Source: Longimicrobiales bacterium
Lineage (GTDB): Bacteria > Gemmatimonadota > Gemmatimonadetes > Longimicrobiales > Gaopeijiaceae
Direction of reading: 5' to 3'
Assembly (NCBI GenBank): GCA_963422615.1
Contig: OY730414.1
Coordinates: 992,001-1,056,000, forward strand
DNA: 64,000 nucleotides
The position numbers and the translations under genes were made by a program. Below, in pieces: positions 36,169 to 57,078 of this stretch (positions are counted from its first letter, which is position 1; each line of letters begins with the position of its first letter). Under the pieces are notes generated by a model. It did no database searches and was not told the origin of the DNA. It saw nothing but the letters and a program-made list of their open reading frames with translations.

Positions 36169-36242
36169 GCGGGAGTAGCTCAGTTGGCTAGAGCGTCAGC
36201 CTTCCAAGCTGAGGGTCGCCGGTTCGAGTCCGGTCTCCCGCT
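36169..36242 (+). tRNA. tRNA-Gly(TCC)
   Basis: GCGGGAG/CTCCCGC stem, CT-TCC-AA loop. Confidence 0.95.
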
Positions 36243-36292
36243 CTGGTACGGCCCGGTGGGATCGGATCCAGCCGGACAAGTCGGAAAGAAGT

Positions 36293-36364
36293 GCTCTGGT
36301 AGCTCAGTGGGAGAGCGCTTCCTTGGTAAGGAAGAGGTCGCGGGTTCGATCCCCGCCCAGAGCT
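36293..36364 (+). tRNA. tRNA-Thr(GGT)
   Basis: GCTCTGG/CCAGAGC stem, TT-GGT-AA loop. Confidence 0.93.
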
Positions 36365-36430
36365 TGGCGGGACCCGCGTGAGGGACTGTGTTCCCGATAA
36401 GTAGGCGAACAGAGAAACAGGTAGGCTAAC

Positions 36431-37683
36431 CTAAGGGGGGGTAGGAGAGAGATGGTGAAGGTGGTATTTGAGCGGAGCAAGCCGCATGTAAATGTAGGGA
36501 CGATAGGGCATGTGGATCATGGGAAGACGACGTTGACGGCTGCGGTGACGTTGACGCAGTCGAAGTTGTATGGTGGGGAGGCGGTGGGTTTTGCGGAGAT
36601 AGACAATGCGCCGGAGGAGCGGGAGCGGGGGATAACGATAGCGACGGCGCATGTGGAGTATGAGACGGAGGGGAGGCATTATGCGCATGTGGATTGTCCG
36701 GGTCATGCGGATTATGTAAAGAATATGATTACGGGTGCGGCGCAGATGGATGGGGCGATATTGGTGGTGAGTGCGGCGGATGGGCCGATGCCCCAGACGC
36801 GGGAGCACATATTGTTGGCTAGGCAGGTAAATGTGCCGTACATCGTGGTATTTTTAAACAAGGTAGACATGGTGGATGATGAGGAGTTGTTGGAGTTGGT
36901 GGAGTTGGAGGTGAGGGAGTTGTTGAGTGAGTATGGGTTTCCGGGGGATGATTTACCGGTGGTTCGGGGGAGTGCGTTGCGGGCGTTGGAGAGTGGGGGT
37001 GAGGGGGAGGAAGCGGAGTGTATAGGGGAGTTGATGGAGGCGGTGGACGGGTGGATACCGGAGCCGGAGCGGGATGTAGACAAGGCGTTTTTGATGCCGG
37101 TGGAGGATGTATTTTCGATAACGGGGCGGGGGACGGTGGCGACGGGGCGGATAGAGCGGGGGGTGGTTCGGAAGGGTGAGCAGGTGGAGATTGTGGGGAT
37201 GGGTGGGGATCGGATGACGGTGGTGACGGGGGTGGAGATGTTTCGGAAGTTGTTGGAGGAGGGAAGGGCTGGGGACAATGCGGGGTTGTTGTTGAGGGGA
37301 GTGGGGAAGGAGGAGGTACAGCGGGGGCAGGTGTTGGCGGCGCCGGGGTCGATTCGTCCTCACACGAGGTTTCGGGCGGAGGTGTATGTGTTGGGGAAGG
37401 AGGAGGGGGGGCGGCACACGCCGTTTTTTGATGGGTATCGGCCGCAGTTTTATTTTCGGACGACGGATGTGACGGGTACGGCGAAGTTGCCGGAGGGGGT
37501 GGAGATGGTGATGCCGGGGGACAACGTACAGATGGAGGTGGAGTTGATCACGCCGGTAGCGATGGATGAGGAGTTGCGGTTTGCGATACGGGAAGGCGGT
37601 CGGACCGTAGGTTCCGGCGTTGTGACCTCCATCACCGAATAATACCCCCCACCCCAATACACCCCACCCCAAAACCCTTAAGG
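36431..37683 (+). repeat. tuf cassette, copy 1 (direct repeat of 53293-54546)
   Basis: Identity starts at CTAAGGGGGGG upstream and ends at CCCTTAAGG downstream; only homopolymer-length differences seen in the flanks. Confidence 0.93.
36452..37642 (+). CDS. tuf: Elongation factor Tu (copy 1)
   Basis: [33 protein letters not shown]. Confidence 0.98.
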
Positions 37684-37740
37684 GCCTGGCAGAACCCCGT
37701 GCCTGATCCAAAGCCACGCAGCGCTGCCGGGAGATTCGAA

Positions 37741-37947
37741 ATGGGACGTTTAGCAAAAGCCAAGACCTTCATGGAGGAATGCGTAGCCGAGATGGAAAGA
37801 GTCACCTGGCCGGACCGGGATCAGCTCCGGAACGCCACCTGGGTGGTCATCCTCTTCACGCTCCTCATCTCCGCGGTCATATGGATCATGGACATCATCT
37901 CCAGGGCGGTCATCGTCGACTTCATTATGGGGTTGTTCCGGTCTTGA
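37741..37947 (+). CDS. secE: Preprotein translocase subunit SecE
   Basis: EMERVTWP..QL..AT plus single TM; between tuf and nusG. Confidence 0.9.
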   Translation: MGRLAKAKTFMEECVAEMERVTWPDRDQLRNATWVVILFTLLISAVIWIMDIISRAVIVDFIMGLFRS

Positions 37948-38480
37948 GAAGCGACGAACGCTGGTACGCGCTTCAGACCCAGGCGCGGCACGAGAAGCGG
38001 GTTCGGCGCTTGATTCAGCAAGAGATCGAAAAAACTTCCGGCCTTGAGGAAGAGATCCTGGAAGTCTTGGTTCCGGAGCAGGATGTGGTTGAGATCCGGA
38101 GGGGGAAGCGGGTCACGGTTACCAAGCCCATGTACCCGGGGTACGTACTGGTGCGGATGGTTCTGAACGAGCGCACCGAACACGCCATCGGTGCGATGAA
38201 GGGAGTAAGGCTCGTGAGTCAGGGCGGAAGCCCCCGGCCTCTTCCCGACAGCGACATGAAGAAGATACTCGGCATAACGGACGAGGACGAAAAGAGCTCC
38301 CGGGACGAGATCCCCTTCCGGGTCGGCGAAGCGGTGGAAGTGATTCAGGGCCCCTTTACGGATTTCTCCGGAACGATTCAGGAAGTTGATCCCGACAAGG
38401 GAAAGGTCAAAGTCGAGGTATCCCTCTTCGGCCGCCCGACGTCGGTGGAGCTGGATTTCACTCAACTGAAGGGCTTCTAG
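37944..38480 (+). CDS. nusG: Transcription termination/antitermination factor NusG
   Basis: [33 protein letters not shown]. Confidence 0.95.
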
Positions 38481-50008: not shown

Positions 50009-50068
50009 TTGACATTTCCGAATTCTTGACTACCTTTCCCAGGCTATTCAGGAAAGCCCTGGAGCGTC
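50009..50068 (+). promoter_or_regulatory. sigma70-type promoter plus leader hairpin of the str operon
   Basis: TTGACA-N16-TACCTT, then CCAGGCT..AGCCCTGG; near-duplicate at 56591-56650. Confidence 0.7.
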
Positions 50069-53292: not shown

Positions 53293-54546
53293 CTAAGGGG
53301 GGGGTAGGAGAGAGATGGTGAAGGTGGTATTTGAGCGGAGCAAGCCGCATGTAAATGTAGGGACGATAGGGCATGTGGATCATGGGAAGACGACGTTGAC
53401 GGCTGCGGTGACGTTGACGCAGTCGAAGTTGTATGGTGGGGAGGCGGTGGGTTTTGCGGAGATAGACAATGCGCCGGAGGAGCGGGAGCGGGGGATAACG
53501 ATAGCGACGGCGCATGTGGAGTATGAGACGGAGGGGAGGCATTATGCGCATGTGGATTGTCCGGGTCATGCGGATTATGTAAAGAATATGATTACGGGTG
53601 CGGCGCAGATGGATGGGGCGATATTGGTGGTGAGTGCGGCGGATGGGCCGATGCCCCAGACGCGGGAGCACATATTGTTGGCTAGGCAGGTAAATGTGCC
53701 GTACATCGTGGTATTTTTAAACAAGGTAGACATGGTGGATGATGAGGAGTTGTTGGAGTTGGTGGAGTTGGAGGTGAGGGAGTTGTTGAGTGAGTATGGG
53801 TTTCCGGGGGATGATTTACCGGTGGTTCGGGGGAGTGCGTTGCGGGCGTTGGAGAGTGGGGGTGAGGGGGAGGAAGCGGAGTGTATAGGGGAGTTGATGG
53901 AGGCGGTGGACGGGTGGATACCGGAGCCGGAGCGGGATGTAGACAAGGCGTTTTTGATGCCGGTGGAGGATGTATTTTCGATAACGGGGCGGGGGACGGT
54001 GGCGACGGGGCGGATAGAGCGGGGGGTGGTTCGGAAGGGTGAGCAGGTGGAGATTGTGGGGATGGGTGGGGATCGGATGACGGTGGTGACGGGGGTGGAG
54101 ATGTTTCGGAAGTTGTTGGAGGAGGGAAGGGCTGGGGACAATGCGGGGTTGTTGTTGAGGGGAGTGGGGAAGGAGGAGGTACAGCGGGGGCAGGTGTTGG
54201 CGGCGCCGGGGTCGATTCGTCCTCACACGAGGTTTCGGGCGGAGGTGTATGTGTTGGGGAAGGAGGAGGGGGGGCGGCACACGCCGTTTTTTGATGGGTA
54301 TCGGCCGCAGTTTTATTTTCGGACGACGGATGTGACGGGTACGGCGAAGTTGCCGGAGGGGGTGGAGATGGTGATGCCGGGGGACAACGTACAGATGGAG
54401 GTGGAGTTGATCACGCCGGTAGCGATGGATGAGGAGTTGCGGTTTGCGATACGGGAAGGCGGTCGGACCGTAGGTTCCGGCGTTGTGACCTCCATCACCG
54501 AATAATACCCCCCACCCCAATACACCCCACCCAAAACCCCTTAAGG
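53293..54546 (+). repeat. tuf cassette, copy 2 (direct repeat of 36431-37683)
   Basis: Same boundaries and sequence as copy 1; offset about 16.86 kb. Confidence 0.93.
53315..54505 (+). CDS. tuf: Elongation factor Tu (copy 2)
   Basis: Protein identical to copy 1; follows fusA. Confidence 0.98.
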
Positions 54547-54549
54547 CCG

Positions 54550-54570
54550 ATCCTCCGAATCGGAGGATTT
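54550..54570 (+). terminator. Hairpin right after tuf copy 2 (possible terminator)
   Basis: ATCCTCCG-AAT-CGGAGGAT followed by TT. Confidence 0.45.
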
Positions 54571-54702
54571 GAGTGAGCCCACGAGCGACGTTGACCAGGA
54601 CGTAACCGGGTTGGTTGTGGCCGGGAAACGAAACGGCGCGTCTAGCGGATACCGGGCGGGCTAGCCCGCCCCGACCGGGCGAACGCAGCGTTCTTCCGGG
54701 CC

Positions 54703-54724
54703 TTATCCACATGCTTTGTCCACA
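54703..54724 (+). promoter_or_regulatory. Two tandem DnaA boxes
   Basis: TTATCCACA (54703-54711) and TTGTCCACA (54716-54724). Confidence 0.55.
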
Positions 54725-54903
54725 TAAGGTGACGGAACCTCCGCGACATCTCATGGTGTCAGTCCCGGTCCTTGTGGCGGCGGGACCCGGCTGTCGTACC
54801 CTTGAGTGATGGAACTTCCGGACGGAACTGTCGTATCAGGTCCATTCCCGGGTCGCAATGGCGGACTCCGTGACAGCCACCCCCATCACAAGAGGAAAGG
54901 ATC

Positions 54904-55368
54904 ATGACTATCTTGACGAAGATCTTCTTTGTAGCCCTGTTTTGCGGCGGGCTTTTGCTCTGCGTTCCCGAAAGCGCCTCGACTCAAGGACCGGGTCCCG
55001 CCAGGTGTGCGCTGTGCGAAGACAACGATACCTGCAAACGCAGCCAATGGGGAACCGGTGGCTGCACCTTCAAGAGCGGACGCTGCGAGTTGACCGGGAG
55101 AGCTTGCAATCCGGCCATGGCCTTGAATCTAGTGAGTCCGGATGACCGACGGATTGTTCCTTCAAACGAAGAGTCCAGGGTGGTCGTGAGGCTCGAAGGG
55201 GACGCGTTCGGGGCATGGGACTGCCGCGGAGAGCTCGTTGAGGCGTACCGGGAGCTGGCCAACGGACGAATGGTGGAACTGGCTGCCGGGGAGTTGGCCA
55301 TGTACGGAAGTCGCTACCGGTTCCACGATTACATTCGGCGTCTGGCCGAAGGGACGACCGGCAAATGA
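54904..55368 (+). CDS. Secreted hypothetical protein with a six-Cys N-terminal module
   Basis: AGAGGAAAGGA RBS, signal peptide, C-x2-C-x5-C-x9-C-x6-C-x6-C. Confidence 0.7.
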   Translation: MTILTKIFFVALFCGGLLLCVPESASTQGPGPARCALCEDNDTCKRSQWGTGGCTFKSGRCELTGRACNPAMALNLVSPDDRRIVPSNEESRVVVRLEGDAFGAWDCRGELVEAYRELANGRMVELAAGELAMYGSRYRFHDYIRRLAEGTTGK

Positions 55369-56531
55369 CATTCAAGCGAATCAAGTTCACGGCCCGGACC
55401 CTGGCCGGACCGGTGTTGGCCAGTAGCCTCGGCCCGGCGGCGCTCGGTGCCCAGGCCGCCCCTTCTCCTGCGTTTGTCGTTCGGGAAGTCTGGAGCTCCG
55501 AAGGTGTGCAGACCGCCGACGGAGTCGGAATATCGAAGATCAGGGGTCTTGCCGAGACGGCTCTCGATGCGATCTGGGTTTCGGATGTGGTTCCGGGGTC
55601 CGGAAGGGTGCTCAAAATCGACCCGAAGACGATGCGGACCGAGGTCATAGGGCGGAGAGGAGATGGTCCGGGCGAAGTCTTGGGTCCCAGGAGAATGGCG
55701 ATCCTGGCGGATGGCAAAGTGGCGGTCTACGACATTGGTCGGGGTGCTGTAGAAGTCTATGAGCCCGAAGGCGAACCGGCCTATCGCGTTCAATTGCTGG
55801 ACGGTTTGTCCTGGGTGAAGGGATTTGCCGCTCTCCGGTCCGGAGGCTTCGTTGTGAGCGGTTGGATTGATTCCAGTGAGTCCGCGGTGCATTACTTCAG
55901 TCAAGAGGGGGTACGGCTTCATGGCTGGGGTGCCCGCCCCGAAGTGGACGACGCACCGGAAGGTGCCAACTACCCTCGCAGCGACGACGAGATGCATGCG
56001 AGGTTCGCGCAGATGGTCGCGATTGGCGGCCCGGTTCATGCGCTTTCGGACGGCTCGTTTCTGTATTCTCGGGCGGCGCCTCACGAGATCGTGCTCTTCA
56101 GGAGGTCGTCGCCCTCGAGCGACGGCTGGTCGCTGCTTCCCGTCGGGTCCATGTCCGATCTCCTTGAAGCCCCTGGGCTGGGAGCCATTGAGCAACGGAT
56201 GGAGGATGGCCAGCTCTACACCGGTTTCAACACGACCTGGCCCCAATCTGCCGGGGTGTTCGAACTGGACGACGGGAGCATTTTGAACGTGGTCGTGATG
56301 CAGGACGAGGGGCGGTCTCTGTGGCAGGTCTTCGACCCGGCCGAGGCCCTGGCCAACGAGATTGCCCGGGCGCGGATCGAAGTACCGGTCAATCGCGCGT
56401 ATGTGCCGCTGTTTCTGTGCGAGAACGGCGACGTGCTTGCGGTCGTCGAAGACCCCTCTACGGGGCTTCATGAAGCGCTTCGCCTTCGCCTGGAGTGGTC
56501 ACAGGAATCGGAAACGGAGGGCAGCCGCTGA
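55365..56531 (+). CDS. Secreted 6-bladed beta-propeller/NHL-like protein
   Basis: Signal peptide, IGRRGDGPGEV..P..MA motif typical of NHL/6-bladed propellers; ATGA overlap with the previous gene. Confidence 0.72.
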   Translation: MTFKRIKFTARTLAGPVLASSLGPAALGAQAAPSPAFVVREVWSSEGVQTADGVGISKIRGLAETALDAIWVSDVVPGSGRVLKIDPKTMRTEVIGRRGDGPGEVLGPRRMAILADGKVAVYDIGRGAVEVYEPEGEPAYRVQLLDGLSWVKGFAALRSGGFVVSGWIDSSESAVHYFSQEGVRLHGWGARPEVDDAPEGANYPRSDDEMHARFAQMVAIGGPVHALSDGSFLYSRAAPHEIVLFRRSSPSSDGWSLLPVGSMSDLLEAPGLGAIEQRMEDGQLYTGFNTTWPQSAGVFELDDGSILNVVVMQDEGRSLWQVFDPAEALANEIARARIEVPVNRAYVPLFLCENGDVLAVVEDPSTGLHEALRLRLEWSQESETEGSR

Positions 56532-56590
56532 CCCGCCCCAGGTCCGAAGGTTGCCTTGCCCCCCAAGGGGGCGTCCGCCCGAGGTGACAG

Positions 56591-56650
56591 TTGACTTTTC
56601 CGAAATCTTTACTACCCTTCCTAGGCTATCCAGGAAAGCCCTGGAGCGTC
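56591..56650 (+). promoter_or_regulatory. sigma70-type promoter plus leader hairpin of the S10 operon
   Basis: TTGACT-N16-TACCCT; 54/60 nt identical to 50009-50068. Confidence 0.7.
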
Positions 56651-56769
56651 GGGCTTCCCTGGCGTAGCAGGACCGTGATCTTCGCCCCGTAACGATTGTC
56701 AAAAGAGGTGGACGGCTAGGATGTCTCCTAGCTACGGGTCGGGTCTTTCCCGCAGGAAATGATCAAGCG

Positions 56770-57078
56770 ATGGCGAACAGGATTCGGATTCGGCTGAAGG
56801 CGTTTGACCACTGGGTGGTAGACCAGACCGCCGCCGATATCGTGCGTACGGCGCAGAAGACGGGAGCCAAGATCCGCGGCCCGATCCCCCTTCCGACTCG
56901 CCGTCAGCGGTGGACCGTTCTGCGATCGCCCCACATCGACAAGAAGAGCAGGGAGCAGTTTGAGCTCAGGACCCACAAGCGACTTATCGACATTATCAAG
57001 AGCCGCCCCCAGACCGTCGACGCGCTGACGAAGTTGGATCTTCCGGCTGGCGTGGATGTCGAGATCAAGGTGGACTGA
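56770..57078 (+). CDS. rpsJ: 30S ribosomal protein S10
   Basis: [24 protein letters not shown]. Confidence 0.98.

Follow-up and report, generated by a model that had tools for sequence, protein, structure and literature searches.

The window, by which is meant the whole stretch of 64,000 nucleotides that was analyzed, belongs to a closed genome of 2.57 Mb (G000) and contains the twin tuf genes of that genome. These stand in the contexts that are conserved for tuf pairs, one between a tRNA cluster and secE (copy 1), the other between fusA and rpsJ (copy 2). The two genes have no coding difference. Together with short flanks, they make up a repeat of 1254 bp at 99.8% identity. Here, exact identity covers 36435-37669 in copy 1 and 53298-54532 in copy 2, and homology covers 36431-37683 (copy 1). 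An earlier reading of the sequence alone had placed TAAGGG motifs at both ends of the cassette, with homology stopping at them. This is borne out on both counts: the left ends read CTAAG followed by a run of six or seven G's (at 36431 and 53293), a palindrome lies at the right end, and the homology stops at these motifs. A tail rich in C and A begins directly 3' of the TAA stop codon in both copies (37643 and 54506). The features are collected in Table 1.

Table 1. Features of the two tuf repeats, in coordinates of the window.
Feature	Position	Strand	Remark
Left end of repeat, copy 1	36431..36451	+	G-loaded, C-free ribosome-binding region (best reading), CTAAG-G run-TAGGAGAGAG
tuf copy 1	36452..37642	+	after tRNA-Thr/Tyr/Gly/Thr, before secE
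G-loaded plus-strand zone	36431..37624	+	peak of cumulative G-C and keto skew at 37624
Opposite-skew zone, 59 nt	37625..37683	-	last six codons and tail; minus strand rich in G and T
C/A tail, copy 1	37643..37683	+	five minus-strand G-tracts; G4Hunter 2.48
Tandem duplication within tail	37641..37672	+	unit of 15 nt, 2.1 copies, 94%
CCCTTAAGGG palindrome, right homology end	37675..37684	.	copy 2 has 8-bp CCTTAAGG
Left end of repeat, copy 2	53293..53314	+	
tuf copy 2	53315..54505	+	follows fusA; no difference to copy 1
C/A tail, copy 2	54506..54546	+	2 differences from copy 1
Hairpin, copy 2 only	54550..54568	+	just beyond repeat end

The surroundings of the two copies have some peculiarities of their own. 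Between tuf copy 1 and secE (37684-37745) there is neither rpmG nor tRNA-Trp; rpmG lies at G000 2369240, and tRNA-Trp lies inside a tRNA array. On one strand of the genome, 17 tRNA genes form an array of 2.3 kb (G000:C1:287968-290279). A direct junction of tuf with secE is also found in the relatives G082 and G089. About 2.2 kb (54547-56770) separate tuf copy 2 from rpsJ. This insert contains two open frames (54904-55368 and 55365-56531), neither with a Pfam match, and, at 54703, one 9-mer that resembles a DnaA box. Two promoter-like stretches of 60 nt that are 90% identical and begin with TTGAC (50009-50068 and 56591-56650) precede rpsL-rpsG-fusA and rpsJ, genes named here by operon order and translation. 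The second of these may restart transcription past the insert behind tuf copy 2.

The tail is real and it is unusual. As the sequence-only reading had stated, the minus strand after each tuf stop carries five G-tracts (37643-37683 and 54506-54546). Their lengths are 3, 4, 4, 4 and 6 in copy 1 and 4, 3, 4, 4 and 6 in copy 2; the two tails differ by shifts in their C-runs. The 15-nt tandem duplication inside the tail had been missed. Just three G-free runs of at least 37 nt exist in the 2.57-Mb genome; two of these are the tuf tails, at 44 nt the longest. At the other end of the repeat, a C-free run of 41 nt begins at the left boundary. Thus, the composition of the tail lies beyond chance. An assembly artefact was considered and is rejected for copy 1 by short-read contigs. 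Contigs from two studies (runs X2 and X5) match 37486-37669 without a difference, and an X2 contig matches 37640-37900, which includes the copy 1 tail, with 0 differences. Short-read contigs break at 37669, the point where the copies diverge. This read comparison extends no further than 54532 in copy 2 and left out runs with small word shares.

As a candidate G-quadruplex (G4), the tail is strong yet not rare. The genome has 775 canonical G4 motifs, among which the tuf tails rank 15-16 by G4Hunter; the tuf sense strand itself has one G4 motif and 152 windows above 1.5 on the same scale. The tail had also been called telomere-like; the likeness goes no further than resemblance, as there is no repeat array. 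Several origins were tried for it and rejected. A known RNA family or a tRNA relic fails, as region 35000-58000 gives just four tRNA genes. A relic of one of the genome's own repeat families fails as well, with no similar sequence elsewhere in the genome. An 18-nt pattern from the tail, searched in metagenomes, gave four matches, none related to tuf.

The two ends had further been described as inverted copies of TAAGGG. The motifs are there; a true inverted repeat is not, since the 5' end is no special partner of the tail: 83 of 236 cassette windows pair with it equally well or better. No inverted repeat of at least 25 nt was listed. Lacking extended and specific complementarity, the ends are rejected as terminal inverted repeats such as would bound a mobile cassette. 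Pairing of the mRNA end to end is rejected too, the 5' end being no preferred partner of the tail. For the left TAAGGG motif, the best interpretation is a ribosome-binding site loaded with G, which can pair with the 3' end of the genome's own 16S RNA.

The tail cannot be discussed apart from the gene that it follows. At four-fold degenerate sites in tuf, the fraction of C is 0.04 and that of G is 0.79, against genome means of 0.41 (SD 0.05) and 0.35, the means coming from 2028 open frames of which some are spurious. The genes fusA, rpoB and rpoC have normal four-fold composition. The protein has changed as well. EF-Tu here has 47 G, 49 V, 46 E, 21 D and 12 K, where two single-copy relatives have 39-40, 42, 33-35, 30 and 17-20, respectively; EF-Tu has drifted toward G, V and E and away from D, K and I. 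Among the Ile codons of tuf, 11 of 17 are ATA, against 0.07 genome-wide.

This depletion of C goes with the possession of two near-identical copies. By its RpsJ and NusG, which come closest, within 119 named loci, to records named Gemmatimonadetes, the genome probably belongs to the Gemmatimonadota. Among 91 genomes of the phylum, 78 have a tuf 3' end and 56, with at least 250 codons, were used; the others are broken at tuf or are without it. No conclusion depends on the unpublished genomes G019 and G076. The four-fold ratio C/(C+G) in tuf is 0.49 in the 31 single-copy genomes and 0.22 in the 25 multi-copy genomes (this genome included), while flanking genes are equal in the two groups (0.48 and 0.48). 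The contrast has the same direction in three families. Likewise, 36 of the 50 genomes with C-depleted tuf (of 103) carry at least two tuf 3' ends, the other 14 being drafts; among whole-chromosome records with C-depleted tuf, 8 of 8 do so. Skew also follows identity between the copies, with Spearman coefficients of 0.83 (n=14) and 0.55 (n=43 pairs); these statistics on copy number and identity ignore kinship among genomes. Four tuf pairs at 88-90% identity have C/(C+G) of 0.31-0.48. There are exceptions. G092 (0.37 at 99.7%) and G021 (0.41 at 98.8%) are near-identical yet weakly skewed, and G032, scored as single-copy in a draft of 140 contigs, is skewed (0.17).

A second long repeat of the genome behaves in part as tuf does. 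It consists of two inverted copies of a methyltransferase-like gene that enclose an integrase, and its core is 100% identical. In the first 300 codons of this core, C/(C+G) is 0.11, where 10 single-match homologues have 0.26-0.50. Partly homogenised copies in G264 give 0.24, and copies at 73% identity in G238 give 0.45 and 0.39. A search of this repeat found no G4 and no TAAGGG, which counts against such motifs as a needed signal. Its 3' part shows no enrichment in C over the homologues, which counts against reading the tail as an end product. Three tandem repeats of the genome at 96% identity show no clear skew of G over C (z from -1.0 to 2.7). The inverted repeat measures 2.2 kb (G000:C1:1353727-1360732, locus L051), flanks a phage-integrase gene and has patchy differences in its 3' half. 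It has the look of a phase-variable methyltransferase that is switched by inversion; two copies are present in G238 and G264 as well. The genome further holds an array, 16 kb long, whose diverged units measure about 73 nt (G000:C1:920818-937120).

Given these contrasts, can the composition of tuf be explained by selection? Codon choice driven by expression is rejected by single-copy tuf, by fusA, by rpoB and by ribosomal genes. A broader proposal, that the G-rich body and the tail are selected together in tuf mRNA, for pairing of its ends, for low structure or for R-loops, could draw on 8 bp over which the G-run of the 5' end matches the start of the tail, and a G-rich sense strand is prone to R-loops. 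The match is not specific, as noted above. Further, tuf in single copy is rich in C (0.91 at two-fold sites), skew extends to the duplicated methyltransferase, and EF-Tu itself has drifted in composition. The contrast by copy number largely refutes this proposal, to which we give very little chance.

The pattern of substitution narrows the field further. Against two single-copy relatives, 55 four-fold sites with C have become G in 47 cases, A in 4 and T in 4, with none kept; at four-fold sites with G, the reverse change to C is seen once in 48. At two-fold sites here, 47 of 61 went from C to T. Several relatives (G207, G368, G346 and G082) lost four-fold C while retaining two-fold C (59/67, 58/69, 62/68; 0.99). 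Cytosine deamination alone is therefore rejected, since these relatives turn four-fold C into G and yet keep C at two-fold sites. This retention, in turn, means that C to G is the core change, to which the most extreme genomes add C to T. Across 50 named loci, G is up and C is down in 50 of 50 (partly a consequence of how the loci were selected), with T up in 14 and A up in 9.

The change also has polarity along the gene. C-depleted tuf loci are fully skewed from codon 1, and C comes back in the last 15-20 codons. In the last six codons, C makes up 51 of 78, where single-copy tuf has 35 of 88; at codons 7-18 from the stop, the relatives just match the single-copy level. Over 24 pairs, differences between copies crowd into the last 100 nt, at about 3.5 times the usual density (43 per bin, against about 12). 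Accordingly, the 3' zone of the relatives may be unconverted rather than reversed. In the genome at hand, the switch sits inside tuf at 37624, six codons ahead of the stop, and the minus strand of the tail has 22 G, 17 T and 5 A. The long 3' extensions shared between copies in relatives have more C than G in 3 of 10 cases, with 414 G and 333 C pooled; the comparison is a weak one, as several of these extensions are hairpin repeats and those of the most extreme relatives are just 0-3 nt long. A G-free end state is thus seen in this genome alone, and this is the weakest step in reading the tail as an end product.

Two side observations concern these sequences. On the G-rich strand (36452-37591 and the minus strand of the tail), A that is free to vary is found almost only after T, and 25 of 28 codons ending in A are NTA; this is possibly a context rule of the bias. 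Directly 3' of the tuf stop, several relatives carry long sequences that resemble hairpins or miniature elements and are common to both copies (L004/L031, L317/L318, L272/L298, L280/L306, L327/L328 and L172).

Were the tail a signal, other C-depleted tuf genes should be expected to have it. A search for the C-depletion pattern returned 119 stretches from 22 of 64 parts of a species collection (about 350 are estimated); the record titles come from more than 12 groups and many phyla. The 3' end is intact in 112 of these loci, of which 111 have 41 nt after the stop. A tail (at most 3 G or at least 18 C in those 41 nt) was found in 0 of 111, and no minus-strand G4 after the stop in the 112 (76 with the full 150 nt). 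CCCTTA occurs in 1 of them, and TAAGGG lies upstream in 2 of the 54 with a start codon. Among 43 relatives with two copies, 31 pairs are strongly skewed. Neither a G4 nor a G-free tail nor CCCTTA is present in any of the 31, and one of them has TAAGGG in its shared 5' end. The shared 5' end of skewed relatives is usually the ribosome-binding region, often with a G-run; similar 5' ends with such a run are seen in G235, G368, G301, G204 and G082. The tail and the TAAGGG ends are, in short, private to this genome.

A direct comparison is with G235 and G036, whose pairs are as identical as this one and about equally depleted. Their C-ending codons number 22 of 371 and 25 of 379; this genome, with 16 of 371, has the strongest depletion in the comparison. 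In both relatives the shared 3' sequence is just 0-2 nt, with no tail and no TAAGGG-type ends. Conservation of the tail had been proposed as a check, and the check goes against it. Absent from every other C-depleted tuf examined, the tail is not a required signal. The sequence-only reading had offered two roles, a cis-acting G4/TAAGGG signal that initiates or bounds the process, or its non-coding end product. The former is unsupported; the latter is favoured.

A narrower form of the signal hypothesis would make the tail an initiator or booster specific to this lineage. A G4 in it would stall forks at the tuf 3' end and so feed breaks into conversion, possibly as a feedback of later origin than the skew. 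The five G-tracts are, after all, kept in both copies at a high genome-wide rank, the genome is the most C-depleted of its set, and the skew switch adjoins the tail. Judged by cumulative skew, the plus strand is the leading strand in this replichore and tuf lies on it, so that the G-rich strand of the tail is the leading-strand template. Against this, G235 and G036 reach nearly equal skew without a tail, no other skewed pair or locus has one, and the genome has 775 G4 motifs. The arrangement is opposite to that in Neisseria, for the strand paired by tuf mRNA would be the G-rich one; a consensus scan of 36200-38000 found no minus-strand site of sigma-70 type downstream of the tail. We regard this form as unlikely.

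The tail might instead act on RNA. Unstructured C-rich sites for Rho are textbook material, and a C-rich, G-free stretch after the stop might have been selected to load Rho or to mark processing. The genome encodes rho, the tail is predicted to be unpaired in a local fold, and no intrinsic terminator was found after tuf copy 1. Set against these are the restriction of the tail to one genome, the start of the C-rich zone within tuf, and the position of secE-nusG, which starts just 60 nt after tuf copy 1; a C-rich length of about 60 nt is at the short end for Rho sites. Selection of this kind is improbable, about as much so as a lineage-specific initiator. A second rho-like gene is found at 1481328.

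Slippage offers a further account, in which the tail is an ordinary low-complexity product, homogenised along with tuf and independent of the process that skews the gene. The 15-nt duplication and the C-run shifts between copies have the marks of slippage, the genome has 16 G or C homopolymers of at least 10 nt, and the extensions shared in relatives are mostly not C-rich. Slippage alone, however, would have to place the longest G-free run of the genome exactly inside the repeat, where it is the mirror image of the 5' end with its lack of C and prolongs a switch whose start lies within coding sequence. We rate this account slightly lower still. The homopolymers range from 10 to 21 nt, and one, at 195632, also starts with TAAG; they are possibly tracts for phase variation.

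We therefore come to the reading that we prefer. The tail is probably the non-coding 3' end of the repeat, left as a passive end product by biased, strand-polar conversion between tuf copies. More broadly, the cassette is likely a repeat akin to the type called GRINS, shaped by polar gene conversion and filtered by mismatch repair. A particular mechanism, heteroduplex of fixed polarity combined with mismatch repair that misses C:C, is a separate matter, for which we would put the chances at somewhat under even.

The mechanism would run as follows. Recombination between the tuf copies would form heteroduplex of fixed strand polarity. Over most of tuf, the plus strand of the broken copy would invade; near the 3' end, a newly made plus strand would return. 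Mismatch repair would miss C:C and remove or reject G:G. Conversions of C to G on the plus strand would then pass over the gene body, and conversions of G to C would pass at the 3' end. There, without protein constraint, the zone would drift to a G-free tract of C and A, and slippage would double 15 nt to give five G-tracts. The same bias would load the ribosome-binding site with G and so give the left TAAGGG. In general, G would be gained on whichever strand enters the repeat at each end, because differences between C and G pass one way and the sign is opposite across the break; this matches the layout observed in tuf. If breaks are one-ended and come from forks running with the gene, the first zone would be long and the return zone short.

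A model of break repair has heteroduplex of recipient plus and donor minus strand on one side and the reverse on the other (PMC5485169, in the part of the text available). For mismatch repair in E. coli, the accessible part of one report gives 0.35 for CC and 0.94 for GG (10.1101/2023.01.08.523062). NucS cuts GG, GT and TT and spares CC, AC and AA, according to the portion of the source at hand (PMC11551744). Marker effects of this kind supply the asymmetry of G over C that is needed; within the available text of these two sources, they come from plasmids and oligonucleotides and not from conversion between paralogues, and the effect on repeat composition is our own extension.

The present genome encodes MutS1 and MutL, and a search of it gave no match to NucS. 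In 78 genomes, NucS occurs in 4, and two NucS genomes show the highest TA skews of 52, a small sample in which the low A of their loci was already known before NucS was searched. The same excess of T over A is found in several MutS genomes. NucS as a requirement for extreme skew is rejected, given its presence in 4 of 78 and its absence here. The presence or absence of MutS as a switch is rejected as well, since 28 of 28 genomes of the phylum have MutS, skewed or not.

Some observations sit poorly with these proposals. Neither the 47 of 61 two-fold changes from C to T nor the excess of T over A on the minus strand of the tail follows from the C:C rule. Conversion in Salmonella starts uniformly along the gene, in the text available (PMC5485169); with uniform initiation, a switch would be expected in the middle of the gene, which argues against the end-product reading. 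Finally, TAA before a G-run is rare in the genome (0.0024), and its presence at both ends of the repeat is incompletely explained by that reading.

How does the cassette compare with known systems? GRINS, described in 2021, are duplicated regions of more than 500 bp and more than 80% identity, with intense GC skew that is strongest at third positions; on one strand they switch abruptly between G+T and C+A, they are enriched in Gly and Val and linked to gene conversion, and their mechanism is given as unknown in the parts of the paper available (PMC8256042). The tuf cassette is likewise a long duplication (at 1254 bp and 99.8%, above both bounds) with third-position GC skew, an abrupt switch, a gain of Gly and Val and a link to conversion. 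In 150-nt windows with a step of 30, its mean absolute GC skew is 0.552, above the GRINS cut-off of 0.15, where fusA has 0.089 and rpoB 0.087. Its mean absolute TA skew is 0.090, below the cut-off of 0.15 for that measure and below fusA (0.128); only 7 of 52 C-depleted tuf genes exceed this cut-off. GC and TA skew in the cassette correlate with r = 0.34, an abrupt switch is present, and the tail is C+A; correlated skews and abrupt switches are typical of GRINS, though outside their definition. Thus, the cassette behaves like GRINS but fails the definition.

On cause, the two cases part ways. As far as the accessible text goes, the GRINS paper proposes a tautomer model, which yields transitions and does not give the transversion from C to G that dominates in tuf, and it has skew promoting conversion, where the tuf data fit conversion producing skew (PMC8256042). 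The terms "tuf", "elongation factor" and "EF-Tu" are absent from the portion of its supplement text that was available (PMC8256042).

Concerted evolution of tufA and tufB likewise involves two identical copies, in tRNA-tufB-secE and fusA-tufA-rpsJ contexts. Homology ends near the gene bounds in both cases, though here it extends 41 nt past the stop. In the available parts of those papers, no strand skew is reported, where tuf here is skewed (PMC5485169, PMC6053082). The uniform start of conversion in that system, again from partial text, contrasts with the polar footprint seen here (PMC5485169). The case of pilE in Neisseria, which had suggested the signal hypothesis, resembles tuf in that a gene subject to conversion has a G4-capable tract next to it. 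In the text at hand, the pilE G4 lies about 300 bp upstream and outside the shared homology, depends on a dedicated small RNA on the C-rich strand, is essential to the process, and serves to diversify (PMC13463697). Both copies of tuf, by contrast, carry the tail within the repeat, at its 3' end; the tail is unconserved, and the outcome is homogenisation. Our literature search, in the texts available to it, which included few subscription or older papers, returned nothing on C-depleted tuf or on such a tail.

A bolder hypothesis can be built on these comparisons, that the blindness of mismatch repair to C:C makes conversion between paralogues a strand-polar drive that recodes repeats and explains GRINS, with the tail feeding breaks. 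We hold this to be possible but rather doubtful. Were it true, selection on codons and even on the amino acids of EF-Tu would be overridden in many phyla, MutS lineages would show skew in GC alone and NucS lineages skew in both GC and TA, the tail would be the naked opposite-strand end state of the drive, and its G4, on the leading-strand template, might now sustain breaks.

The tail as a signal is a lead that these comparisons close. GRINS were described without a mechanism, and twin tuf genes offer a universal test bed in a single gene, one that comes with its own single-copy controls. Here, the dominance of C to G, the polarity and an unconstrained tail narrow the mechanism to one that is testable. 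There is a practical side as well, for tuf is a common reference for codon bias and a common phylogenetic marker, and its silent sites, with some amino acid sites, are distorted wherever two copies convert. The unusual G-ending codons of Thermus tuf were reportedly remarked on decades ago.
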